Part shown: positions 37,612 through 51,153 of the stretch, in pieces | How positions within the stretch are numbered: position 1 is the stretch's first letter | Layout: the number at the start of each line of letters is the position of its first letter | Origin: an uncultured Gammaproteobacteria bacterium | GTDB taxonomy: Bacteria; Patescibacteriota; Microgenomatia; UBA10105; UBA927 | Length of the DNA: 64,000 bases | Assembly: GCA_964629685.1 (NCBI GenBank) | Contig: CAZVTT010000001.1 | Coordinates: 176,627-240,626 of the forward strand | Direction of reading: 5' to 3' | The notes under the pieces: generated by a model | Told to the model about the DNA's origin: nothing | Seen by the model: the letters and a program-made list of their open reading frames with translations, nothing else | Database searches by the model: none | Program-made: the position numbers and the translations under genes

Positions 37612-39006
37612 GTGGAATATCCTGTGTTTATTATGGAAATAGAAAAACTGTGGAAATCGGTGCTGGCAGAAATAGAACTATCAGTTTCAAAGGCCACGTT
37701 CCAAACACACTTTGCTCAAACCCAACTCGTCACGTTAAAGGATAATGTTGCCACAATTGGGTTCACCAATCCGCTCATGAGGGCTTTGGTAGAAACCCGG
37801 TATTATTCTTTAGTAAAGAGTGTGCTGGATCATCATACGAAAGCAAATACGAGTCTTATTTTTATAATTGCCCCAAAAAAAGAGACGCTCTCTTCCAGAG
37901 AAACCGGTCCGCTTTTTAATCACATACCGGAAGCACCCTCTCTAAATATAACCAGTATTACAAAAAAACTACACCTCCGCGCAGAGTCCACATTTGATAC
38001 TTTTGCCGTCTCTACGAGCAACCAGATGGCGTATGCTGCCGCCACCGCAGTAGCCAAATCTCCCGGAAATGCATACAATCCGCTTTTCCTTTATGGTGGT
38101 GTCGGAGTCGGAAAAACACACCTCATGCATGCCGTGGCAAACACGCTGCTATCCCAAAAACCAAACACAAAAATTGTGTACTGTATGGGTGAAGAATTCT
38201 TAAATGAAATTGTTGAAGCCATTCAGACCAAAACAAGTCGCCAGTTTAAACAAAAATACCGCAGTGCCCAGCTGTTGCTGGTCGACGATGTGCAGTTTAT
38301 CGCGGGGAAACAAACGGCACAGGAAGAGTTTTTTCATACGTTTAATGCCGTACACAGAGAAGGGGGACAAATAATACTAACGAGTGACAGACCTCCTTCT
38401 GAAATTTCCAGATTAGAAGATCGTTTAAGGTCGCGATTTGAAGGGGGATTAACCGTCGATGTAGGCCCGCCGGACTTTGAGCTGCGAACCGCAATTATAA
38501 ATATTAAATCACAGGCATCGGGTATTCAAATTCCGCCTGATGCTGCTCAAATAATCGCCGCCAACGTTACGGACACAAGAGCAATTGAGGGATTCTTAAA
38601 ACGATTAACCTCTGAAGTTTCCACAAGGGGCGCTACCGTGTCGGGAGAGCTTGTGCTTTCACTGCTTGGTCACAAAGCAAAAGACACAACCATAATAGCC
38701 CCACAAAAAAACAGCAAGCGTATTGCCCCACAGGAGGTTCTCGAGGCTGTGGCTGATTACTTCGGTTTAAAAACCACACAATTAAAAAGTCCCAAAAGGG
38801 ACAGACCAATCGCTCGTCCAAGACAGGTGTTTATGTATTTGTGCAAAACTGAGCTCGGTTTAACCCTGGATGACATTGGTGGCCTGCTTGGAGGAAGAGA
38901 CCACACAACTGTTATGCATGGGGTAGAAATTATCACCAAGGAGTTATCCACTAATCATCAATTACGGGATGCGATTGTGGGTATAAAACAAAAGCTGTGG
39001 GTTTAA
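37612..39006 (+). CDS. dnaA: chromosomal replication initiator protein DnaA
   Basis: AAA+ Walker A LFLYGGVGVGKTHLMHAVAN. Walker B LLLVDDVQF. Sensor region ILTSDRPP. C-terminal DNA-binding helix-turn-helix LGGRDHTTVMHG. Confidence 0.9.
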   Translation: MEYPVFIMEIEKLWKSVLAEIELSVSKATFQTHFAQTQLVTLKDNVATIGFTNPLMRALVETRYYSLVKSVLDHHTKANTSLIFIIAPKKETLSSRETGPLFNHIPEAPSLNITSITKKLHLRAESTFDTFAVSTSNQMAYAAATAVAKSPGNAYNPLFLYGGVGVGKTHLMHAVANTLLSQKPNTKIVYCMGEEFLNEIVEAIQTKTSRQFKQKYRSAQLLLVDDVQFIAGKQTAQEEFFHTFNAVHREGGQIILTSDRPPSEISRLEDRLRSRFEGGLTVDVGPPDFELRTAIINIKSQASGIQIPPDAAQIIAANVTDTRAIEGFLKRLTSEVSTRGATVSGELVLSLLGHKAKDTTIIAPQKNSKRIAPQEVLEAVADYFGLKTTQLKSPKRDRPIARPRQVFMYLCKTELGLTLDDIGGLLGGRDHTTVMHGVEIITKELSTNHQLRDAIVGIKQKLWV

Positions 39007-39180: not shown

Positions 39181-40290
39181 ATGGAAATACAAATACTTCA
39201 AGAAAACCTTTTAAAGGGACTAACAAATCTTGTTAGGATAATTTCAACAAAGCCACAGCTTCCAATTCTTCAAAACCTGGTTATTTCTACGGAGCAGACA
39301 AGAGTTAAAATTGCTGCCACCAACATGGAAACGTCCGAAATCTGTTGGTTTGGAGCAAAAGTAAACAAAGAAGGAGGGCTGTGTGTACCAGCGCGGTTAT
39401 TTATTGATTTTGTGTCGTCCCTTTCTCCCGGAACAATAACACTAGAAAGCAAAGAGGGATCATTAAGAGTTTCCGGAGGAGGAGTTAATGCCCAGATTCC
39501 GGGAATAGACGTCTCTGAATTCCCTCCATTGGCTCAGTTTGTTCCTGAAGGAGCGATGGAGTTTGAAACAAAGGCATTTATAGAGGCTTTAAAGATGGTT
39601 CTTTTTTCAGCTGCGACAGATGAAGGAAGACCAATGTTAACGGGAATAAAAATGACACAAACGGAGGGACAGCTTGTTCTTGCTTCCACAGACGGTTATA
39701 GACTTTCACTAATGAAAATAACGGTAAATTCAACAGAAACATTCGATTTGGTGGTCCCGGCAAGAGCACTTACGGAAGTTGTAAAGATCGGACACGAAGC
39801 TAAAAATACCACAAAAACCTGCAAGATAGGAAAAACAGCAGATGGTCAGTTGGCGTTTATGTATGATGACCTGGAAATATTTACCAGACTTATAGAAGGG
39901 GAGTTTCCCAAGTATGAGAAAATTATTCCCGCTACACACACTACAATGGCAAGGATAGATACTGCATCACTGTTAAGAGCCGTTAAGTCGGCGTCTATCT
40001 TTGCCAGGGATAACGCAAACATTATTAAGATGGTTGTTTCCCCCGGGGGAATTGAAGTCTCAGCAAATACCCCACAGGTTGGGGAAAATAGAGTGGAGAT
40101 AGAGGCGGCTGTTGAGGGAGAAGGGGGAGAAATGGCATTTAACAGTCGCTTCCTTCAGGACTTTCTGACAAATTTTTCGGAAGAAGAGGTTGTTTTTCAG
40201 ATGACGGGCTCATTAAACCCGGGTGTTTTTAAACCCGTAGGCGAGAATTCATACCTGCATATCATCATGCCCGTCAGAATTCAGGGATGA
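39181..40290 (+). CDS. dnaN: DNA polymerase III beta sliding clamp
   Basis: 369 aa. MEIQILQENLLKGLTNLVRIISTKPQLPILQNLVI has the three-domain clamp organisation. It sits downstream of dnaA. Confidence 0.9.
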   Translation: MEIQILQENLLKGLTNLVRIISTKPQLPILQNLVISTEQTRVKIAATNMETSEICWFGAKVNKEGGLCVPARLFIDFVSSLSPGTITLESKEGSLRVSGGGVNAQIPGIDVSEFPPLAQFVPEGAMEFETKAFIEALKMVLFSAATDEGRPMLTGIKMTQTEGQLVLASTDGYRLSLMKITVNSTETFDLVVPARALTEVVKIGHEAKNTTKTCKIGKTADGQLAFMYDDLEIFTRLIEGEFPKYEKIIPATHTTMARIDTASLLRAVKSASIFARDNANIIKMVVSPGGIEVSANTPQVGENRVEIEAAVEGEGGEMAFNSRFLQDFLTNFSEEEVVFQMTGSLNPGVFKPVGENSYLHIIMPVRIQG

Positions 40291-41305: not shown

Positions 41306-44179
41306 CTACCTACAGTTTCCTACGCCACCCGGAAGCATTGCTCTAATATCTACGGATTCAATCCCTTGTGAAGCAAAATCCGGTCCATCCCTGCGTTCAT
41401 AGTGTAAATGCGCACCGGTTGAATTACCTGTGTTGTCCATGCTGCCGATGGCTGCACCAGCCGTAACCTGTTGTCCGTTTGTAACATTGAATGCTGCTAA
41501 ATGGGCGTATATTGTCTCATAACTACCATCTAAGCTTCTCAGTCTGATCGCGTTCCCATACCCTCCAAGTCGTCCTACAAATGTAACTCTGCCGGCGTGG
41601 CCAGCTGTTACCGTAAACGTGGACAGTGCGGGACGACAGACCAAATCAACTGCATTCTCATTATATTGTCTGTGCGTGTAGCTGCTTACAGGAGCAGGTC
41701 CCTGACTTATACACACACCGGGACAGTTTAACGGATTGCTGCATCCACCCGGGTCCCGTGCGGGGTCACAGGGAGTAAAGTTGCACGCCGGATCCCCGGG
41801 GTTCTGAGTACAATCTACGCCGGGGCGATTGTAGTTATTAACCATTTGTTCTACCAGCGCCTTGGGTAAAGAGACCTCTTCACCGTTTATTCGTACAATA
41901 CAACGGGTTGGGTCTGCAGGATCATCCCGTAAACAATAAATTGGCTCTTCGCCACCACCCAGCTCCGGTGCATACTTTGCCATGATTGAATCACCGGTCA
42001 ATGATTTTGACTGATTCATGAGCAGAAGCAGAATTGCCAATCCTCCAAATAAAAAAACATATGGCCAGCTTTTTGCTGAAATGGTTCCACCATGCATAAA
42101 AGCATCGGCACCACTCAGTAAGCCACCTATAAATGATCTTAGGAGGCCAATTGCTGCGAATGCCCATCCCACCGGTCCGGCTACCGCGCTTATTGCCGTC
42201 TTTGCTATCCCCGAGACGGCCACTTTGGCAGTACCGCCGATAAGCTTTCTGACTGCGAAACGTACCCCCCGAGCTCTAACATTTGAAGCAAATGCATTTG
42301 TACCCCAACGTATTACCCAGCCTCCACCGGGATTCTCCTGTATAGTAAAAAGCCTTCCAAAAAGTTCCGGCGATTCAGATAAGAGTGATAGCATTAAAGC
42401 GTCCTGTATTACGAGACCACTTCCGTCGGGAAGACTGGTCATGGTGTATACGGGGGAGTTGGGGTTTAGTGATTTTGCGTTTTGGAGAAATGTAGCCAGT
42501 GCCGCTCTATTAACTCCAGCTTCGGGAAATGTTTTTTCATCCGAAAGGGTAAGGGTGAGAATAAACAACGCCTCCGCTGCGCTTGTCGGTTGAACTGCGC
42601 CGGAGACCAATAAAGCCTGTCTCTTTTGCATTTCGCTAATTGCTTTTAAGTCTGGAGCGCCTGTTTTTGTGGAGAGTCGTTTCCCTTCCGCTGCTGCTAA
42701 ATACAATATTGTGGCTTCGGCAAATTGGGTGCCAAAAACCGAACCAGCCATATCTCCCAAAAAACCACTAGCACCCTGAACAATTCCTCCTGCTCCGGAC
42801 CCTTGTCTGTCAAAGACGGTCTTACTGTTTTGCAAAAGTAACTGAAATTCATGATTGTTAACGACGGATGATCCCAAAGCGTCTACCAATTTTCCCGGGG
42901 TGCCGGTTAAGTCTGCCAGGCTTTTTCGTAAAGCGCTTGCAACAATTGTTGCACGTTCAGCGCGCGGATCACCGGAAAGGCTTATCCAGCCTTCGATGGC
43001 CGAGGCGGCAACTTTTTGTTCGCGAGTCTTCGCAATAGAGTGAAAAAATCCGGGAGTTGTTAATATATCAACAGGTGTTTCCGTGGCGTCATAAATTAAC
43101 GCAGCCCGGGAATAAATTTGTGCCCGGCGGAGAATTGAATTTGAATCTTCGTCTGAAATGCTTCCACCGGAAGCGAGCTTGTTTTCTATTTCCCTGGCGG
43201 CAACGCTGGAAAAAACCCCGACGGATAATACGGCTCCTGGTTTGGTTAATATATCTCTTGCTGCCATTCTGGATACCTGCCACTCGGCATTTTCGGCTCT
43301 AACCGCCGATATCACCGCGTCTTCATACTGGGGAACATCTCTCGCCGTGGCTCTTTTCGCACGTGCCAGCACAGCTTCACCGATAGTGTCGGGAGAATTT
43401 GGTACAGGTGTATACGATACTTGTGGTTGTGGTCTTCCGGAGAGCACCTCTCTTGGTGAGGGTGTCTTTTTTGTTTCGCCAACAGGTGTTTCCCTGAGTA
43501 CAAGTATGCCGTTTTCCCAGTGATATTGCTCTCTGGCCAATTCTTCCGTTTCCACCCTGTATTTGCTTTTTAGTCTGGAAAGAGTGGCTGCGGCAGTTTT
43601 GGTATAGGTATATTCAAGTCGGCGTTCATAATCCAAAGCAGAAAGATCGCGAGATTGATTCTGAATTTCTTCCGTTAGGTTCCGAATGTCTTTCTCTATG
43701 CCCCGCACCTCTTCCGCATCTACTGCAAAGGCGGTAAGCATCCGAATGTAGTTATTCATGAGATTTCTTGCATATTGATCTTGGAGGGCACGAAGTCTGG
43801 CATCCCGAGCCGAAAGTGTTTTATGGGCATTTTCCAGCTGTCTTGCGTGATAATCAATAATAGAATAATCAGTAACCCTATCGGCCGGTCTGTTGTTCTG
43901 CGGCATTGACGAATAATTCTTAGAAAAGTCAGTCGCCTTCAATATTCTAATAAGCATCATCTGTAATGCATGTGGGGAAGCATTGTGTAGGGCATCCGCT
44001 GCCTGAACGTCGTAGTCCATGGACGACATTGTCGCCCGAATATCTTCGTATTGAAGAGCTTGTTCCTGAATCTTAAACAATTCAGAGAATGTTAAGTCTT
44101 TGCCTGCAGAGAGTAATCCGATGGTTTCGGTTACAAATAAACCTGTTTTTGGTGGCTCGGAAGCTCCTTGTTCTGCCAT
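41306..44179 (-). CDS. large bitopic/polytopic protein with a C-terminal M23 (LytM-type) peptidoglycan endopeptidase domain; candidate cell-wall-remodelling component of the T4SS-like apparatus
   Basis: 957 aa. The N-terminal ~600 aa are coiled-coil-rich and cytoplasmic. Transmembrane helices lie around residues 655-720. A Cys-rich segment follows (CTQNPGDPACNFTPCDPARDPGGCSNPLNCPGVC). The M23 motifs are HAGRVTF...GYGNAIRL...HLHYE. Confidence 0.7.
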   Translation of the reverse strand: MAEQGASEPPKTGLFVTETIGLLSAGKDLTFSELFKIQEQALQYEDIRATMSSMDYDVQAADALHNASPHALQMMLIRILKATDFSKNYSSMPQNNRPADRVTDYSIIDYHARQLENAHKTLSARDARLRALQDQYARNLMNNYIRMLTAFAVDAEEVRGIEKDIRNLTEEIQNQSRDLSALDYERRLEYTYTKTAAATLSRLKSKYRVETEELAREQYHWENGILVLRETPVGETKKTPSPREVLSGRPQPQVSYTPVPNSPDTIGEAVLARAKRATARDVPQYEDAVISAVRAENAEWQVSRMAARDILTKPGAVLSVGVFSSVAAREIENKLASGGSISDEDSNSILRRAQIYSRAALIYDATETPVDILTTPGFFHSIAKTREQKVAASAIEGWISLSGDPRAERATIVASALRKSLADLTGTPGKLVDALGSSVVNNHEFQLLLQNSKTVFDRQGSGAGGIVQGASGFLGDMAGSVFGTQFAEATILYLAAAEGKRLSTKTGAPDLKAISEMQKRQALLVSGAVQPTSAAEALFILTLTLSDEKTFPEAGVNRAALATFLQNAKSLNPNSPVYTMTSLPDGSGLVIQDALMLSLLSESPELFGRLFTIQENPGGGWVIRWGTNAFASNVRARGVRFAVRKLIGGTAKVAVSGIAKTAISAVAGPVGWAFAAIGLLRSFIGGLLSGADAFMHGGTISAKSWPYVFLFGGLAILLLLMNQSKSLTGDSIMAKYAPELGGGEEPIYCLRDDPADPTRCIVRINGEEVSLPKALVEQMVNNYNRPGVDCTQNPGDPACNFTPCDPARDPGGCSNPLNCPGVCISQGPAPVSSYTHRQYNENAVDLVCRPALSTFTVTAGHAGRVTFVGRLGGYGNAIRLRSLDGSYETIYAHLAAFNVTNGQQVTAGAAIGSMDNTGNSTGAHLHYERRDGPDFASQGIESVDIRAMLPGGVGNCR

Positions 44180-44191
44180 ATTACGCGCGTA

Positions 44192-46246
44192 TTATACTAG
44201 GTTGTGCGTGTCTCCGCTTGCGTCAGAGTCAGACGGTACGGTCTCTACGGTAAACATCGGTCTTGATGGTGGCGTATCAACCACTTCTGGTATCATTTGT
44301 GGGGGAGTGTCCATCATGGTTGTATTTCCCGAGACCGGGGTGGGAGAGGGTGTGTTTTGCGTGAATGCCGGTGGTGACTGTGTTACCGGCATAATCGGTG
44401 GTAAAGGAACACTGGGAGCGGGAGTAGTAGTTGTCTTTTTTGCTTCCGATGCCGCTCTTTGAGCAGCTTGGCGCTCCAAGTCTTGCGGTCTGGTGGTAAT
44501 GAGCTCGTGTTCTTCCGGAGAGGCTATTACTCTCACTGCCGCATGTGCGGGTCCGGCAAACATTAAACCTTCTCCAACATCCGCGGAAAGCAGTAGGTGT
44601 TTTTCCCCTTCGGAAAGGAAGAACACTTCGGCTACGCGGTCAATCGCTGCCGTTGACTGCTTTAAAAGAAATTGTAAACTGCTGTTTTGAATGATGGTTT
44701 TTCCTAATTCTACAGACAGAAAATCTTCGACGTCCTGCGTAATTGTGGTTAGTCCTAAATAGTATTTCCTGGCGCGCTTGGCAATGGAATTCAAAAATTC
44801 TCCGGAATCCTGATATTTCATCATGTACCACGCCTCATCCACCAGCAGTATTCTTCTTTTAATGTCTCTCCGTACCCGTGTCCAGATATAATCCAATATA
44901 AGATACATGGCGATAGGTCGGAGTTCTTCTTCCAGGTCTCTAATGGAAAAGACAGTAAGGCTGTTCCGTATTTCTACATTTGTTTGCTGGTCAAAAATTC
45001 CCACAAGGCTGCCTTTTACGAATTTTTCAATTCTATCCGCCAGGCTTCGTGCGGTCGCGTTTTCCATACCCACGAGAACTTTATATAAATCTTCCATAAG
45101 CGGTGGTTCAAGCGTCTGTGTGGCCGGATCCGGTGTAATACCCTTTTGTTTATATGTAAGTATCAACGCCTGATCGAGCAATGCATCCTCGGAGGCTGTG
45201 AGTTTTCCCATAACGACCCTGAAAAAACCGTGCAGCGATAATATCTTTTGATTTAACTCGCTTTCCTCTGATGTTTGTTTAAGCAGCGCCAGGTCAAATG
45301 GATTTATTTTGGTAGAACTGCCGAAACTAAACCGGATGTATTCTCCTCCCAGCGCATGGCTAAGCGCCTCATATTCATTTTCCGGGTCAATTACAATTAC
45401 TTCTGTACCAAACATGAGGTGACGCATAATTTCCAGTTTCACCGTATAGCTTTTTCCCGATCCCGACTTGCCGAACACTACAGTGTTTGCGTTTTCCAGG
45501 GTAAAGCGGTCAAAAATCACCAAGCTATCGTTATGTTCATTTATTCCGTAGAGTATTCCTTCGTTGGCGGAAAGCTCCGATGTGGTAAACGGAAAGGTGG
45601 TTGCCAGCGATGTCGTATCCATGTTTCGGGTAACAATGACCCTGTCCTGTCCCATTGGCAGTGTCGTTTTGAATGCATCTTCCATTTGAAGAATTGCTTT
45701 CTTGCTGACAATCAGAAGTGAGGCTAATGTTGATTCAACTTGTCTGGTCGCTTTGTCGAGCTCTTCTTTCGTTTTTGCCGGAATAGTAACATAGAGACCG
45801 AACTGAAAAAACCGTTCCGAGCCTTTTGCGAGTTCCTGTTGGAGAGCCAGCGCGTCTTCAAGTGCTACCTGAATTGATGGTTCTATGACACGTCCCCGCT
45901 TCATGTCTGATTGTATGGTGGCTTCCATTTCTCCCACTTTTCTGCGCAGATTTTCAAGTACTTCAGATGATTGCGTGGGGTAAATATACATGGATATATC
46001 CAGCGTGTGATCGAAAGAAATAAGTGGTTCCAGCCAGTTTGCGGAGACAAAGCGCGGATATCCGGCTACGAAAATTGTTCTGAAGTAGTGATCGCCAATC
46101 TTTAAGTAATCGAAATCAACTTCAATTGCAGGCGGTGCGATAATGTCTTTTACCAGCAGCGGTCCGTTTGCATCATGTTTAATCGGAGTGTTTTCCGGCA
46201 TTGGATCCAGAAATTTTTTTAGTGCGACACGGATAGTGTTTGCCAT
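44192..46246 (-). CDS. VirB4/TrbE/CagE-family type IV secretion ATPase
   Basis: N-terminal VirB4-type GYPRFVSANWLEPLISFDHTLDISMYIYP. Walker A VVFGKSGSGKSYTVK. Walker B RRILLVDEAWYMM. A roughly 70-aa Pro/Thr/Ser-rich C-terminal tail is present. Confidence 0.8.
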   Translation of the reverse strand: MANTIRVALKKFLDPMPENTPIKHDANGPLLVKDIIAPPAIEVDFDYLKIGDHYFRTIFVAGYPRFVSANWLEPLISFDHTLDISMYIYPTQSSEVLENLRRKVGEMEATIQSDMKRGRVIEPSIQVALEDALALQQELAKGSERFFQFGLYVTIPAKTKEELDKATRQVESTLASLLIVSKKAILQMEDAFKTTLPMGQDRVIVTRNMDTTSLATTFPFTTSELSANEGILYGINEHNDSLVIFDRFTLENANTVVFGKSGSGKSYTVKLEIMRHLMFGTEVIVIDPENEYEALSHALGGEYIRFSFGSSTKINPFDLALLKQTSEESELNQKILSLHGFFRVVMGKLTASEDALLDQALILTYKQKGITPDPATQTLEPPLMEDLYKVLVGMENATARSLADRIEKFVKGSLVGIFDQQTNVEIRNSLTVFSIRDLEEELRPIAMYLILDYIWTRVRRDIKRRILLVDEAWYMMKYQDSGEFLNSIAKRARKYYLGLTTITQDVEDFLSVELGKTIIQNSSLQFLLKQSTAAIDRVAEVFFLSEGEKHLLLSADVGEGLMFAGPAHAAVRVIASPEEHELITTRPQDLERQAAQRAASEAKKTTTTPAPSVPLPPIMPVTQSPPAFTQNTPSPTPVSGNTTMMDTPPQMIPEVVDTPPSRPMFTVETVPSDSDASGDTHNLV

Positions 46247-46248
46247 AA

Positions 46249-46941
46249 TTACGTTGCTTTCCCTTGTGTTTGTCCCAGCGTGTTTGTAGCTTTTATTGCC
46301 TGTTGAATTGTATTTGCCTCCGGCAGGGGAGTACCGGGATTGTATATAGAAAAGTATAGCCTTACCAACTGTTCGGTTGTAAGTTGTTCGCCTTTTAATC
46401 CCAACCGGGCTACCGCTCGGACTAAATGATCTTTTTTGGGTGTAAGTACCGTCAGTGCTCGTTCATAAATATATTGTTTTGGATAAGGGAGACCGCGTTT
46501 CTTGCTGCCGAACAGGACGTTGGCGGATTGACCGAGTTCCAGGCTGGAGAAGGGAATTACAATATAAAATTTTTTATCCAAAACATTTTTTTCTTTTACT
46601 GTGGCGGCTACGAAGTTTCGATAACCGCGAATACTGTCGGCAATTTTGGGATTTTTTTGTTTGCGTTCCTGCTCTTCCAGTAAGTGGAGATAAGCAGTAA
46701 TGTCTTTCTGTTGTGTGCGGACAATGAGTTCTATGGGAAAAGAAAGGGAATTCAGCAATCCCGCATAGGCGTAAATAAGCGATTCCTGTTCTTTTTCAGA
46801 GAGCAGACCAAAATTTACTGCCGTTGTAGAAATGACCAGGGCACAGGAGCCATCCACAAACATTACCAGATCTTTGTCGATATCTTCTATCTCGATAAAA
46901 ATCTGTGTTGACGATCTGATGGGAACAATGGGCTGGCTCAT
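46249..46941 (-). CDS. hypothetical soluble protein conserved in position between the PrgI-like and VirB4 genes; a T4SS accessory candidate
   Basis: 230 aa with no transmembrane helix. It sits 2 nt from the VirB4 start and is probably co-transcribed. No recognisable motif. Confidence 0.45.
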   Translation of the reverse strand: MSQPIVPIRSSTQIFIEIEDIDKDLVMFVDGSCALVISTTAVNFGLLSEKEQESLIYAYAGLLNSLSFPIELIVRTQQKDITAYLHLLEEQERKQKNPKIADSIRGYRNFVAATVKEKNVLDKKFYIVIPFSSLELGQSANVLFGSKKRGLPYPKQYIYERALTVLTPKKDHLVRAVARLGLKGEQLTTEQLVRLYFSIYNPGTPLPEANTIQQAIKATNTLGQTQGKAT

Positions 46942-46981: not shown

Positions 46982-48640
46982 TCATATTGTTTTTGCTCCA
47001 AATATTTCCCGTTCGAGTTTCGCCCGATCAATTTCCCTTTTGCTTTTTGCAATAATTTCCAATGCAGACATGATTGTTCCGTTTAATGTTATTCTTACCC
47101 TGTCGAACATATATGTTCCTTTGGGATCTTCAATATCTACTGTGTATACTCCGCTCGGAAGGGGCGTGGAGGCGGCAAATTGTCCCAATTTATTTGTTTT
47201 TAGGGCTCTGACAGGTATATCTTCCTTATCGCGAACAGTAACGAGTACACCCGGCAGAAGATTTCCCGTTGTATCTTTAATGATTCCGGTTACTACATTC
47301 GGGAATGTCGTGAGTCTCGGTAAGCCTGCTTTAACGGCAACGTCAGCTGAAATTACTTTTACTGTTGATTTTTCCGGTTCATTTGTTGCCACGCCGGCAG
47401 ACCTGTATCGCTGTTGCGGCTGTTGAGGCTGTGTAAGTCGTTGTCGAAGTGTTTGAATCTCCTGTTCCATTTTGGTTTTTTGATCCAATACTTCCAGTAA
47501 TTGTTTCTGCAGTTCCAATACGCGGTCTTCAGACATACTTTTTGTCTGCAGCTCTTTTTTTAGAGTTTCCATCTGTTGCTGTAGTTCATCTGCTTTCTTT
47601 TTTGCTTCTTCATCTTGTACCGGTTGGTTTACCGGAGCGGTTGGTGGTGGCGGCGTTTCAATCGGTTTCATTTTGGTTCCGGTTACTGATGGTGCCGCTG
47701 CTGTCTGATATACGTTCGGATAAGCAACAGCATACGCCGGAGCAGCCTGAGGTGATTGTTGTGGTCTTAGGGCAAAAAACGTGGTAAACCAGTCAAACAG
47801 TCCAAATGCATTTGTGGTAACAATTTTAGACTGAGCCACCGGTTTTGCATGTTGAGTTGCTATCGGTGTAAACGGCGCGCTTTGATGCACAGATGCGGTC
47901 GGCTGTGGGTACTGTTGTGGTGCCGTATGATTATTTTTTTGTGGCTTTGACTGGAACAGCGAGAATATCCAGTCGAATACATGTGACTTTTGTTTTTGTG
48001 CTGCGACTGGTCTGTTTGTCTGAGCGGGTGGTACGGCTTGCGTTACCGGTTTGGGAATTTGTATCGGTTGTACGGCTGACTGTTGGGGTATCACCGGCAC
48101 GAACGGCTGCGCCTGTGCCGGGGCGGCTGCTTTGACAACGGGTTGGGAGGCTTGTCCGTTTAGTGATGGTGACACAATTTCGGGTTTGCTTTTTTTAGTT
48201 CCTGTTCCCAATAGTTGTTTCTTTAAAGCATCCAATTGTATGTTTATACCGGCAAATGTAAACGGTTTTGTGTGCGATAGTCCCGGTGTTTGCGTCGGAA
48301 GGGTAGCCGGTGTGACCACGGGCGGTTTTTCCGTAGATACCGGTGGTGTCGTTTTGGTTTTTTGCCATAAATACTGTGTGGGACTGTAGATACTCTTTAC
48401 AAAAGAGAGAAACCAGACATCCATGGGGCGTTCTTCTACAGGTACGAATGCAAAGCCGACACCCCCAAGTGCAAACGTAGCTGCTGCCGGCCAGGTAAAA
48501 AAGAACGGCAAGGGTAATTTATACGAGATGTATCCCAGGATTGCGCCACCAGCCAGATACCCGAATTGCTTCAGGGTCATGTCACCAATAAGTCGGAACT
48601 GAAATGTGGTAACGTTTTGCGGAACCGGATGTTGTTCCAT
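46982..48640 (-). CDS. PrgI/VirB3-like membrane protein fused to a Gln/Pro-rich linker, a coiled coil and a C-terminal beta-sandwich (carboxypeptidase-regulatory-like) domain
   Basis: N-terminus FQFRLIGDMTLKQFGYLAGGAILGYISYKL...FALGGVGFAFVP gives two transmembrane helices with PrgI-like spacing. About 250 aa of P/Q/A/T-rich low complexity follow. A coiled coil is KKKADELQQQMETLKKELQTK. The C-terminus is VVTGIIKDTTGNLLPGVLVTVRD...GVYTVDIEDPKGTY. Confidence 0.45.
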   Translation of the reverse strand: MEQHPVPQNVTTFQFRLIGDMTLKQFGYLAGGAILGYISYKLPLPFFFTWPAAATFALGGVGFAFVPVEERPMDVWFLSFVKSIYSPTQYLWQKTKTTPPVSTEKPPVVTPATLPTQTPGLSHTKPFTFAGINIQLDALKKQLLGTGTKKSKPEIVSPSLNGQASQPVVKAAAPAQAQPFVPVIPQQSAVQPIQIPKPVTQAVPPAQTNRPVAAQKQKSHVFDWIFSLFQSKPQKNNHTAPQQYPQPTASVHQSAPFTPIATQHAKPVAQSKIVTTNAFGLFDWFTTFFALRPQQSPQAAPAYAVAYPNVYQTAAAPSVTGTKMKPIETPPPPTAPVNQPVQDEEAKKKADELQQQMETLKKELQTKSMSEDRVLELQKQLLEVLDQKTKMEQEIQTLRQRLTQPQQPQQRYRSAGVATNEPEKSTVKVISADVAVKAGLPRLTTFPNVVTGIIKDTTGNLLPGVLVTVRDKEDIPVRALKTNKLGQFAASTPLPSGVYTVDIEDPKGTYMFDRVRITLNGTIMSALEIIAKSKREIDRAKLEREIFGAKTI

Positions 48641-48825: not shown

Positions 48826-51153
48826 ATGGAGTCACCCTTTGTTCTCCTGGAACTAAAGAATAGCCGCGATAGTGAAGAGACGCCAGCCGCCATGGAGCAG
48901 GTGTTTGCTGCTCTGGGTTCAACCGGAGGGCATGGGGGATTATTACAACAATTATTCGGACCTAAACATCCGCCACGCTATTTCAGTTTTGAAATTGTGT
49001 CGGTAAATACGCGAATACATCTGTTTATAGGCGTACCGCAACACTTGCAAACCTATGTGGAGAGTCAGATAACTGCGCATTACCCGAAGGTACTCCTTGG
49101 TCCGGTATCTGACTACGCACCGCATTTTTTTTCTCTTCCGCATGAATTGGCACAGTTGGTGTTGTCGAATGCCTATTATTATCCGTTAAAAACGCATAAA
49201 GACGTTAAGGATCTGGATATCCTTACGGGTGTATTTGGCCAAATAGCGAAGCTACCGATGGGGGAAGCCGTAGCAATTCAAATCAGAATTAGCCCGGCAG
49301 GACACGGATGGATACACTCCGCCTCTTCTGTTGTGGCGCACGGAATTCCGGACCCTAACAATCCCGGCAAAATTAAAGCACATCCTCATGCCAGAATAAT
49401 TGAAACCAAGTTGGCGCAGATAGGTTTTTCTGCTGCCATCCGTGTGTTGTCTGTGGCACCGGATCATGAACGGGCGGAAGCCCTCATGAACGCGGTTGCC
49501 GGTTCTTATGGTGTTTTTACCCAAGGAGAAGGAAATGGTCTGGTGGTCATGCCTCCGGCTTTTTGGCAAAAAGGAAAGTTGGAAACCGCTTTTATTTCGC
49601 GTAGTGGTGATGTTCTTCCGCGGTCTCAGGTATTGGGCTCGGCTGAGTTGGCGTCGTTGTGGCATCCTCCCGGTTTGTCGTTATCAATGATCAAAAATAT
49701 TTCCTGGAGTGAACAACTTACGGGTGAAGCTCCGGAAAATTTACCTGTTTCGACGGAAGATGCTGAAGAACAGAAGCGGATTAACTTCTTCGCCCGTACT
49801 GAATACAAAAATAAAGTGGCTACATTTGGTATTAAAGGAGATGACCGGCGGAAGCATCTGTATATCGTGGGAAAAACCGGTACCGGCAAATCCACCATGA
49901 TTGCCAATATGGCAATTAACGACATGCGCAATGGTGAGGGTGTTGCCGTTATCGATCCTCACGGTGATTTGTGTGATGTGCTCCTGGATTTTGTACCGTC
50001 TTACCGGATTAATGATGTGGCATATTTGGATCCATCGGATACGGAAAATCCATTCCATCTAAATCCATTGGAAGTTAAAAATGAAACATACCGTGAGCTT
50101 ATTTCCTCCGGAATAGTGTCTATCTTTTATAAACTATATCATTACAGTTGGGGGCCAAGGCTGGAGTATATTCTCCGCAATGCCATTCTGACATTGCTGT
50201 ACGTTCCCAGATCGACTTTGTTACAGGTTCCGGAACTTCTTACAAATGAAAATTACAGGGCAAGAGTCGTGGAAAAATTGCCGGATCAGGTGCTGAAGAA
50301 TTTTTGGTTAAATGAGTTTGCCAAAATGAGCCCTCAGATGAAGAGTGAAGCGGTTGCACCCATATTAAACAAAGTCGGTCAATTTTTATCTTCACAGACG
50401 ATAAGAAATATTGTCGGTAACCCGGTTTCTACAATAGATTTAGAGTCTATGATGAATGACGGAAAAATAGTGCTCGTAAATTTATCGCAGGGGAAACTGG
50501 GCGAAGATAACAGTGCGCTGTTGGGTGCCATGATGATTACTAAAATGCAATTGGCAGCAATGAATCGGGTTTATTTGGATGAAGAGAAAAGACGGGATTT
50601 TTACCTGTACGTAGACGAATTTCAGAATTTTGCTACCAGTTCATTTATTAAAATTCTATCGGAGGCGCGGAAATACCGACTGGACTTGATTTTGGCGAAT
50701 CAATATATAGGTCAGATAGACGAAGAGGTTCAGGCAGCTATTTTCGGTAACACCGGTTCAATCGTCAGCTTCGGTGTGGGCGCCACGGACGCTCGTGTGC
50801 TTACCCGCGAATTTGGTCTGAAGTATAAAGAAGAAGAACTGGTGGCGCTGGGAAATCACCAGGTGGTATTAAAATTGTCCATAGATAACCATACCTCTAC
50901 ACCATTTTCGGCAAATACGCTGCCGTTGCCACGGAGCAGAAATCAAAATCGTGATAAAGTTATCAGATCATCCCGCGAGCGATATACGAAGCCGTTCCAA
51001 CGAAAAGATGAGCCCGCCATGTCTCCCACCACCGTCGATAATGTGTTGCAGCCTCAGATGCAACAGAATCAGCCTAAAAATCAGAATTCTGCTCCGAAGC
51101 ATACACAGACAAAGGAGAGTCGGCCACCTGTACCACCGGTTAAACCAACATGA
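48826..51153 (+). CDS. VirD4/TraG/TraD-like (coupling-protein-type) P-loop ATPase with an atypical non-membrane N-terminal domain
   Basis: Walker A HLYIVGKTGTGKSTMIANM. Walker B LYVDEFQNF. QYIGQIDEEVQAAIFGNTGS is conserved in the TraG/TrwB ATPase family. No transmembrane helices appear in the first 300 aa. A Gln/Pro-rich C-terminal tail is present. A HerA/FtsK-like assignment cannot be excluded. Confidence 0.55.
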   Translation: MESPFVLLELKNSRDSEETPAAMEQVFAALGSTGGHGGLLQQLFGPKHPPRYFSFEIVSVNTRIHLFIGVPQHLQTYVESQITAHYPKVLLGPVSDYAPHFFSLPHELAQLVLSNAYYYPLKTHKDVKDLDILTGVFGQIAKLPMGEAVAIQIRISPAGHGWIHSASSVVAHGIPDPNNPGKIKAHPHARIIETKLAQIGFSAAIRVLSVAPDHERAEALMNAVAGSYGVFTQGEGNGLVVMPPAFWQKGKLETAFISRSGDVLPRSQVLGSAELASLWHPPGLSLSMIKNISWSEQLTGEAPENLPVSTEDAEEQKRINFFARTEYKNKVATFGIKGDDRRKHLYIVGKTGTGKSTMIANMAINDMRNGEGVAVIDPHGDLCDVLLDFVPSYRINDVAYLDPSDTENPFHLNPLEVKNETYRELISSGIVSIFYKLYHYSWGPRLEYILRNAILTLLYVPRSTLLQVPELLTNENYRARVVEKLPDQVLKNFWLNEFAKMSPQMKSEAVAPILNKVGQFLSSQTIRNIVGNPVSTIDLESMMNDGKIVLVNLSQGKLGEDNSALLGAMMITKMQLAAMNRVYLDEEKRRDFYLYVDEFQNFATSSFIKILSEARKYRLDLILANQYIGQIDEEVQAAIFGNTGSIVSFGVGATDARVLTREFGLKYKEEELVALGNHQVVLKLSIDNHTSTPFSANTLPLPRSRNQNRDKVIRSSRERYTKPFQRKDEPAMSPTTVDNVLQPQMQQNQPKNQNSAPKHTQTKESRPPVPPVKPT

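Follow-up and report, generated by a model that had tools for sequence, protein, structure and literature searches.

Why would a VirB3-type subunit of a type IV secretion system (T4SS) carry a C-terminal tail of about 460 residues, and on which side of the membrane does such a tail lie? The question is raised by an open reading frame (ORF) on the minus strand of a 64,000-nucleotide stretch of the contig CAZVTT010000001.1 (hereafter the window, meaning this whole stretch). Canonical PrgI/VirB3 proteins are 10-15 kDa in mass and have short cytoplasmic ends, and PrgI itself has 117 amino acids (PMC12857230). The protein encoded here departs from this small size, as it has 552 amino acids, of which about 460 form a C-terminal extension. 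Its VirB3/PrgI anchor is followed by a disordered basic spacer, in which two short motifs are conserved, by a coiled coil specific to its clade and by a conserved transthyretin-like domain. This fusion is real, widespread and fixed across the class-level lineage Microgenomatia. The tail is more likely to lie inside the cell than to reach the surface.

According to the ORF list and the translation, the ATG-started ORF occupies positions 46982..48640 (-), which is exactly the interval singled out by an earlier reading of the bare sequence (the original prediction). The start codon is backed by the near-invariant N-terminus MEQHPVPQNVTTFQF..., which is equally placed in 120 homologs. These are the best of at least 1452 homologs retrieved by a word-indexed search, and their alignment was the input for a full-length AlphaFold2 (AF2) model of the 552-residue protein. 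The original prediction had described a PrgI/VirB3 head, a low-complexity linker of about 250 residues, a coiled coil and a beta-sandwich resembling transthyretin or carboxypeptidase-regulatory domains, and every one of these parts proved correct.

The head, residues 1-95 (48356..48640, minus strand), is a canonical VirB3 module consisting of a tight membrane hairpin and an amphipathic helix. Pfam PF12666, the family suggested for comparison, matches residues 5-89 along profile positions 1-88 of 91 (E=2.5e-7), and its 31.6 bits exceed the gathering cutoff of 27. The segment divides into an N-tail (1-25), helix 1 (about 26-41), the loop LPLP (42-45), helix 2 (about 46-68) and the amphipathic helix (about 72-92), which is conserved. 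The AF2 model places helices at 14-41, 46-64 and 72-85, with a pLDDT of 82-95 across residues 21-60, and thereby contains the layout of VirB3, namely, a two-helix membrane hairpin with a loop of four residues and a following C-terminal alpha-helix. Helix 2 forms a clear hydropathy peak, and helix 1 is only moderately hydrophobic. In the close family, the mean pairwise identity is 80% for the PrgI domain, 96% for the N-tail (the first 25 residues) and 98% for the LPLP loop. In solved systems, the amphipathic helix of VirB3 binds the N-terminal domain of VirB4; the binding is one-to-one, with six copies in R388 (PMC12857230; PMC12624023). The PF12666 match and the position of the gene beside a VirB4 module bear out the proposal that a core T4SS subunit is encoded here.

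The head is followed by a disordered basic linker that is rich in Pro, Ala, Gln and Thr (residues 96-340, 245 amino acids, 47621..48355, minus strand). Its composition is 16% P, 13% A, 11% Q and 11% T, its sequence entropy is low, and its pLDDT remains below 50; the low-confidence stretch of the AF2 model extends over residues 87-340 and is interrupted only by a short helix at 283-288. In the close family, the linker varies in length from 88 to 250 amino acids and has a mean pairwise identity of 23%. Two short motifs are conserved within it. The first is the amphipathic motif (P/L)-F-x-W-(L/I/V)-x-x-L-F-x-P-K-P at residues 281-293 (47762..47800, minus strand), in which the short helix is modelled with a pLDDT of about 70 and the columns F282, W284 and F289 are retained in 89, 90 and 103 of the 120 homologs, respectively. 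The window protein and a small number of its close relatives have an extra copy of this motif, which in the window protein is VFDWIFSLFQSKP, located upstream at residues 221-233 (47942..47980, minus strand), where the pLDDT rises to about 60. The second conserved motif, P-S-(V/I)-T-G-(K/R), lies at residues 317-323 just ahead of the coiled coil (47672..47692, minus strand) and retains G321 in 97/120 and S318 in 80/120 homologs. We also considered this motif as a sortase signal and rejected it, because it is situated in the middle of the protein, is not LPXTG and has no hydrophobic tail behind it.

The coiled coil spans residues 341-403 (47432..47620, minus strand) as a heptad segment with a near-invariant core, R-(I/V)-L-E-L-Q-K-Q-L. 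AF2 models it as two long helices (341-366 and 371-403), and its 3.5-residue hydrophobic periodicity is reached by 0.35% of shuffled sequences and has p<0.01 in 104 of the 120 homologs. R373 is present in 118 and both L377 and Q378 in all 120 of them, with a mean pairwise identity of 39% for the segment in the close family. The shortest family members lack the coiled coil, and their two domains are separated by a Pro-rich spacer alone. Therefore, the architecture has a conserved core of PrgI domain, flexible spacer and beta-sandwich, to which the coiled coil was added at the level of a clade.

The C-terminal domain (C-domain), residues 425-552 (46985..47368, minus strand), includes a lead-in strand and helix, a transthyretin-like beta-sandwich at about 448-531 and a closing helix at 534-547. 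The AF2 model of this domain is beta-rich, with a pLDDT above 90, and its fold conforms to the prealbumin-like sandwich of seven to eight strands. A structure prediction for the C-terminus had been proposed as a check, and its outcome is a confident transthyretin-like beta-sandwich rather than a disordered region. The original prediction had named two outcomes that would count against it, namely, no PrgI match and a disordered C-terminus; PF12666 scores above its cutoff and the C-domain is folded. PF13620 (CarboxypepD_reg) matches residues 450-506 at 30.4 bits, just under the gathering cutoff of 32.3 (E 5e-7); the same family is a precomputed match in approximately half of the close homologs, and 73 of 86 distant relatives match it at E<=1e-3. 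The mean pairwise identity of the C-domain is 69% in the close family, and the surface loops of the sandwich (KTNKLGQFAAST, EDP and FDR) are very highly conserved. The highly conserved lead-in segment and the terminal helix set this domain apart from other transthyretin-like, CarboxypepD_reg and CnaB domains, and the isopeptide and sorting features of CnaB pilins are not present.

Several searches delimit what else the protein could contain. The translation contains no signal peptide and no C-terminal sorting signal; its N-terminus is the PrgI domain itself, and it ends in ...REIFGAKTI without a hydrophobic tail. The combination of signal peptide, LPXTG-type sorting signal and hydrophobic tail that characterizes CnaB-type surface adhesins and pilins is therefore not found. 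Outside the hairpin, no segment exceeds a 19-residue hydropathy of 1.2, so no further transmembrane (TM) segment was identified. VirB10/TrbI and TonB gave no match at E<=0.1 in Pfam or NCBIfam, and the Pfam and NCBIfam scans returned no nucleic-acid-binding family. Sequence searches of PDB chains with both domains produced nothing significant, and Foldseek with the full model returned beta-sandwich matches only and no VirB3 chain. A second copy of the PrgI domain or of the C-domain was not found elsewhere in the 64-kb window.

At first glance, an ORF of this composition might be suspected to be an artefact in which a short prgI and a downstream gene were joined in error, through a frameshift, misassembly or mistaken gene call. 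We consider this explanation extremely improbable and already refuted by the surveys of related genomes, loci and proteins. A search for the same fusion in related genomes had been suggested, and the fusion was indeed found. All of the best 120 homologs are 385-566 amino acids long and carry PF12666, and approximately half also carry PF13620; the few that bear a name are listed as "PrgI family protein" and belong to Candidatus Gottesmanbacteria or to the Microgenomates group. A protein identical to that of the window (P0001) is encoded on an NCBI contig of 953,690 bp and also occurs in Logan. In a scan of one genome per GTDB species, relatives were encoded in 524 genomes, and the best 76 loci match nearly the whole query. 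Both domains occur in one ORF in all complete related loci, and the exceptions are truncations at contig ends and one frameshift. The C-domain alone was also compared exhaustively by phmmer with 1.84 billion cluster representatives. The number of matching clusters was 76 at E<=1e-30 and rose to 882 at E<=1e-10 and to 1652 at E<=1e-3. The 150 best of these matches have the domain at the extreme C-terminus of proteins of 240-560 amino acids. Among 86 more distant representatives (44-54% identity), PrgI was still matched in 70, and the named examples include Levybacteria and "Candidatus Microgenomates". Both domains are present in 326 of 348 fetched proteins, separated by a spacer of 72-338 residues (median 213), and the length of family members ranges from 277 to 566 amino acids. 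Among the phmmer relatives and the fetched proteins, the C-domain was seen solely at the C-terminus of PrgI proteins. A tblastn search of the PLSDB plasmids with the PrgI domain gave no match. The same unbroken ORF on megabase-scale contigs and in 524 species genomes, the preservation of both domains in frame at every complete locus and the failure to find a stand-alone tail gene all argue against an artefact.

What speaks for an artefact is that short public contigs do hold false fusions of the same tail, NusA_N::tail and REC::tail. In the latter (P0203, locus L078), a receiver (REC) domain stands where the PrgI domain would be, ahead of the coiled coil and the C-domain, and the gene is followed by TrsD; this protein seemed to prove that the tail is cytoplasmic. 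Nucleotides 667-1852 of L078 are 98.9% identical to a normal PrgI-tail locus (L082), and nucleotides 1-666 are unrelated to it. The NusA_N::tail locus (L081) is 100% identical to L082 and L083 from nucleotide 466, and the two parts of this fusion meet within the beta-sandwich, at the microhomology IVSGIVKD. The change to the unrelated 5' part of L078 is abrupt. Both loci are probably assembly chimeras and are not used as evidence. They should be taken as a warning for the mining of domain architectures from short contigs. The apparent stand-alone tail proteins (P0183, P0222 and others) were likewise rejected as artefacts, being truncated at a contig end or split by one in-frame stop. The ORF of L080 runs into the contig start; in L079, a PrgI domain lies just upstream of the tail and is split from it by a single in-frame TGA (296-298) inside the hydrophobic helix 2. 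This TGA could be a sequencing error, a pseudogene mutation or a recoded stop.

The location of the tail must be deduced from the anchor. VirB3 has two TM helices with both the N- and C-termini in the cytoplasm, and it is at times fused N-terminally to the cytoplasmic VirB4 (PMC12857230; PMC12624023). Since the two helices of the window protein are joined by a loop of only four residues, both ends of the hairpin must be on the same side of the membrane. Given the homology to VirB3 and the lack of a further TM segment, the tail is predicted to begin on the cytoplasmic face, beside TrsD and VirB4. The conservation of the locus is consistent with this placement. Three proteins without TM segments, VirB4, the type IV coupling protein (T4CP)-like ATPase and TrsD, have median identities to the window protein of 76%, 70% and 67%, respectively, across related loci. 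The corresponding values for the envelope proteins are 33% (M23 protein), 25% (an anchored protein of 335 amino acids) and 39% (polytopic protein). With 96% for the N-tail, 80% for the PrgI domain and 69% for the C-domain, these parts of the protein group with the TM-less ATPases and not with the envelope proteins. This evidence is independent but circumstantial, and the comparison is approximate, because it mixes pairwise identity within the family with identity to the window protein.

Beyond the approximate nature of that comparison, several observations weigh against a cytoplasmic tail. Both hydrophobic helices are just moderately hydrophobic, and under the positive-inside rule the flanking charges in the family alignment are indecisive (K+R versus D+E of 2.0 and 2.0 for the N-tail, 0.8 and 0 for the loop, and 2.0 and 3.0 for the first 15 residues beyond helix 2). 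The majority of the structural relatives of the C-domain lie outside the cytoplasm, including CnaB pilin domains, the S-layer protein SlaB and carboxypeptidase domains. Proteins that span the wall often have Pro/Thr-rich spacers, and the order of TM segment, Pro-rich spacer, coiled coil and globular domain also fits VirB10, TonB and Gram-positive VirB8-like proteins. Finally, the sole apparent direct clue to a cytoplasmic tail was the REC::tail protein, which is a probable chimera. The exclusion of cysteine is uninformative on location, as Cys makes up 0.037% of the C-domain, 0.035% of the cytoplasmic VirB4 and 3.1% of the exported M23 domain. As a separate observation, the VirB4 orthologs (L002-L077) are nearly free of Cys (15 in 43,004 aligned residues), and the other ORFs of the window, when pooled, contain about 0.87%.

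These points lead to the possibility that the tail is an extracytoplasmic stalk. The hairpin would then be of the leader-peptidase type with both ends outside, or helix 1 would fail to cross the membrane. The wall would be traversed by the linker together with the coiled coil, and the beta-sandwich would lie outside. This is the surface-reaching stalk of the original prediction with a structural instead of an adhesive role, and it would act in the manner of VirB10 and TonB or of the Gram-positive VirB8-like proteins with a TM segment, a coiled coil and a globular domain. In addition to the surface proteins among the top fold relatives (with SlaB, the CnaB pilin domains and the transthyretin-like domains of carboxypeptidases) and the abundance of Pro, Thr, Ala and Gln in the linker, a net-acidic segment after helix 2, in which E69, E70 and D74 are invariant or nearly so, would fit an outside flank, and no VirB10 equivalent is known in monoderm T4SSs (PMC12857230). 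However, the stalk conflicts with the topology of VirB3 established by experiment and structure (PMC12857230; PMC12624023), and it would require the translocation of a 25-residue N-tail that contains R16 and K24. The 96% conservation of this N-tail suggests a conserved partner, and the conserved proteins of the locus, TrsD, VirB4 and the T4CP-like ATPase, are all TM-less. Moreover, the C-domain is 69% conserved compared with 25-39% for the envelope proteins, the protein has neither a signal peptide nor a sorting signal, and there is not a single Trp in 40,391 C-domain residues, which is atypical of a glycan-binding module. On balance, we regard an extracytoplasmic stalk as rather unlikely, and as the main rival of a cytoplasmic tail. 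The tail would, if extracytoplasmic, be the first VirB10/TonB-like envelope-spanning element in a monoderm T4SS, built on a VirB3 scaffold of inverted or altered topology, and this more specific proposal we hold to be unlikely. If true, six proline-rich coiled-coil arms would link the ATPase platform of the inner membrane to the wall, the S-layer or the base of a host-facing pilus.

The original prediction also offered an adhesive tip, in which the C-terminal beta-sandwich would be an adhesin on the surface of host cells. Such a role is suggested by a fold common to MSCRAMM and pilin CnaB domains and by the epibiotic lifestyle of the Patescibacteria; in one species that has been studied, growth on hosts requires the T4SS (PMC12102498; PMC12857230). 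All objections to the extracytoplasmic stalk hold here too, and the C-domain is among the best-conserved parts of the protein across hundreds of species, with an unalignable linker at 23%, which is the opposite of what is usual for host-specific adhesins. Neither LPXTG nor another signal for anchoring is present, and the domain is attached to a subunit of the inner channel and not to a pilus. A C-domain with an identity like that of cytoplasmic ATPases, and not of envelope proteins, is not what would be expected of a host-contacting adhesin. An adhesive tip is therefore very improbable. Indeed, a literal adhesin is unlikely on whichever side the tail lies, because the C-domain is far too conserved and lacks a sorting signal. 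With the cytoplasmic termini of VirB3 and the lack of any further TM segment, neither the surface-reaching stalk nor the adhesive tip of the original prediction is supported.

What, then, might a cytoplasmic tail do? By analogy, we believe that it may be a ZipA-like tethered binding module on a VirB3 anchor, a reading to which we give about an even chance. In ZipA of the Escherichia coli divisome, a membrane anchor is followed by a basic region and by a long, flexible tether that is rich in P and Q and lies in the cytoplasm, and the C-terminus is a globular domain for binding. Only the layout is shared, as an analogy of mechanism without homology, and the type of anchor, the fold and the machine differ. 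To its VirB3 anchor, the lineage has added a flexible, basic, proline-rich linker bearing F-x-W-L-x-x-L-F, in this clade a coiled coil, and a highly conserved beta-sandwich with its helix. According to the ZipA-like reading, the tail would most likely hang in the cytoplasm beside TrsD and VirB4, with one tail per VirB3 (six per machine, if R388 is a guide), and would probably act around the TrsD/VirB4 platform as a binding arm tethered to the membrane, similar to ZipA or to the peripheral stalk of a hexameric ATPase. At the base of the channel, such an arm would capture a conserved partner from the cytoplasm or keep it in place. Speculatively, the best candidate partner would be the adjacent, divergently transcribed, TM-less T4CP-like ATPase, and VirB4 and TrsD themselves or the substrate are further candidates. 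The T4CP-like ATPase is proposed because its gene is adjacent in 62 of 77 loci and because of a precedent in pIP501, in which TraI, a small protein with two TM segments, is the proposed anchor of the TM-less coupling protein TraJ (PMC12857230).

The linker could alternatively make the tail an appendage that binds nucleic acids or the membrane. In this proposal, the basic linker and the F-x-W-L-x-x-L-F helix would contact the inner leaflet, or DNA or RNA at the channel entrance, and the beta-sandwich would serve mainly in oligomerization or capping rather than in the reception of a partner protein. The net charge of the linker (+14 in the window protein, from 20 K+R and 6 D+E, with a family median of +6) and that of the C-domain (+4) are favorable to it, and the conserved amphipathic aromatic motif may be likened to membrane-targeting helices. 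The scans returned no match to a nucleic-acid-binding family, however, the sequence of the linker is otherwise unconstrained, and the highly conserved loops of the beta-sandwich, KTNKLGQFAAST, EDP and FDR, suggest a specific ligand. We find this appendage improbable.

A comparison with known systems indicates which features are shared and which are new. With PrgI of the Enterococcus plasmid pCF10 and VirB3/TrwM of Agrobacterium and R388, the protein has in common PF12666, the two-helix hairpin with its C-terminal helix and a gene position just upstream of the VirB4 module; it differs from them in its tail of about 460 residues and in a separate TrsD-like gene between the PrgI gene and VirB4. 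The VirB3-VirB4 fusions of Campylobacter plasmids and CagE likewise bear a folded C-terminal module on VirB3, which indicates that the VirB3 C-terminus is able to carry a large cytoplasmic domain. In contrast to these fusions, the appended part consists here of a disordered linker, a coiled coil and a beta-sandwich and includes no ATPase, and VirB4 and TrsD are each encoded by a gene of their own; a survey published in 2025 found no VirB3-VirB4 fusions in Patescibacteria (PMC12102498). The likeness to TraI of pIP501 is one of layout, as both are VirB3-like proteins with two TM segments in a monoderm T4SS whose coupling protein has no membrane anchor; TraI has no long tail, and an anchoring role would be an inference for the protein considered here. 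With VirB10 and TonB, the order of the parts is the same (anchor, proline-rich spacer, helical segment and C-terminal beta-rich domain). However, VirB10 and TonB have one TM segment with the C-terminus outside, whereas the anchor here is a hairpin of two helices, and in its homologs the C-terminus lies inside. Neither a sequence match nor a family match was obtained, and the transthyretin-like sandwich corresponds neither to the barrel of VirB10 nor to the C-terminal domain of TonB.

Part of this was known already, as the "PrgI family protein" annotation and both Pfam domains are present in precomputed annotations. The architecture, its fixation across Microgenomatia and the motifs appear to be undescribed in the literature searched, which yielded nothing on an extended VirB3. 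The survey of Patescibacteria T4SSs counts PrgI/VirB3 homologs without mention of an extension, and the words "carboxypeptidase" and "coiled" never occur in it (PMC12102498). These T4SSs are widespread and usually relaxase-free, their cargo and mode of transport are a puzzle, and they are essential, PrgI included, for epibiotic growth in the one species tested (PMC12102498; PMC12857230). VirB3 is the least understood core T4SS subunit, and a fixed, conserved, folded module on it provides a concrete handle. The ligand of the beta-sandwich and of the F-x-W motif is likely to be a partner of key importance to this repurposed machine, or one of its substrates. The architecture, with a function that we infer, is thus a tractable entry to an essential and mechanistically opaque secretion system.

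The surroundings of the gene are best explained as a chromosomal, origin-proximal, monoderm-type (MPF_FATA-like) T4SS of a Gottesmanbacteria-like member of the Microgenomatia (Patescibacteria/CPR), of which the gene encodes the VirB3/PrgI subunit. The PrgI-tail gene heads a minus-strand operon that continues with genes for a TrsD-like protein, VirB4, an M23 protein and a 335-residue protein with an N-terminal membrane anchor. The TrsD-like protein (46249..46941, minus strand, 230 amino acids) resembles the N-terminal part of VirB4 (VirB4_plasma positions 103-235, E 8.6e-8; NCBIfam TrsD, E 5.9e-4). The VirB4 ATPase (44192..46246, minus strand, 684 amino acids) belongs to the CD1110 family (NCBIfam NF045971, 408 bits against a cutoff of 325). 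VirB4 is seemingly split, as the TrsD-like protein covers its N-terminal part and the 684-residue protein aligns from approximately model position 185. The M23 protein (41306..44179, minus strand, 957 amino acids) has a C-terminal peptidase domain (PF01551, 73.8 bits) and, by hydropathy, hydrophobic segments at about 660-720, and is a candidate VirB1-like wall hydrolase. This protein lacks a signal peptide, about 660 N-terminal residues precede its hydrophobic cluster, and its conserved region is unusually rich in Cys (3.1% across the aligned orthologous parts). Upstream of the operon, and divergent from it, is the gene of the VirD4/T4CP-like ATPase (48826..51153, plus strand, 775 amino acids), with Pfam matches to TraG-D_C and to TrwB_AAD_bind (32.9 bits against a cutoff of 20.5). 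The protein has no TM segment; its 19-residue hydropathy peaks at 1.14, and the median maximum of its orthologs is 1.31. The N-terminal region of about 330 residues has no family match, and the protein also matches PADLOC models of the mad8/HerA type.

This arrangement is conserved in the order T4CP<->PrgI-TrsD-VirB4 ... dnaN, with TrsD right after PrgI in 76 of 77 related loci, VirB4 in 75, the adjacent and divergent T4CP in 62 and dnaN in 60. Across Patescibacteria, a T4CP was found near virB4 in just 148 of 5,713 cases (PMC12102498). In the window, dnaA (37612-39006) and dnaN (39181-40290), both on the plus strand, directly flank the T4SS operon, and the cluster is therefore origin-proximal. 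Farther along are the genes of a VirB6-like polytopic membrane protein (55670..57148, minus strand, 492 amino acids), with a signal sequence and about eight TM segments by hydropathy and a weak TrbC/VirB2 match (PF04956, E 5e-4, below its cutoff), and, adjoining it, an array of six small VirB2-like pilin genes (57207..59775, minus strand, 119-146 amino acids). The translations of the pilin-like genes each contain a conserved GD(P)KK..E.A loop between two hydrophobic helices. VirB2-like pilin arrays are known from Microgenomatia (PMC12102498). No relaxase family was identified among the scanned neighbors, with scans that covered part of the window ORFs. VirB4, TrsD and PrgI, a pilin array, proximity to the origin and scanned neighbors free of relaxase together are the features of the origin-proximal, mostly relaxase-free, MPF_FATA-like T4SSs of Patescibacteria described by Quinonero-Coronel et al. 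in 2025 (PMC12102498).

Three further observations concern the records and the remainder of the window. Many records of the relatives (L002-L077; TPA 'binchicken' and similar metagenome-assembled genomes) are titled 'uncultured Gammaproteobacteria bacterium', and their loci are syntenic with those of Gottesmanbacteria; these titles look like placeholder taxonomy. An ORF of 1018 amino acids at 52515-55571 (+) has no match in Pfam, NCBIfam or PADLOC, lies in a stretch that is richer in GC (about 0.50 compared with 0.40-0.47) and is missing from all 76 related loci, in which the VirB6-like gene directly follows nadD/nadE; it may be a lineage-specific insertion. Finally, positions 61201-63420 (+) encode an HMG-CoA reductase (379 bits) followed by a thiolase/HMG-CoA-synthase-like protein, which places genes of the mevalonate pathway in a small CPR-type genome.

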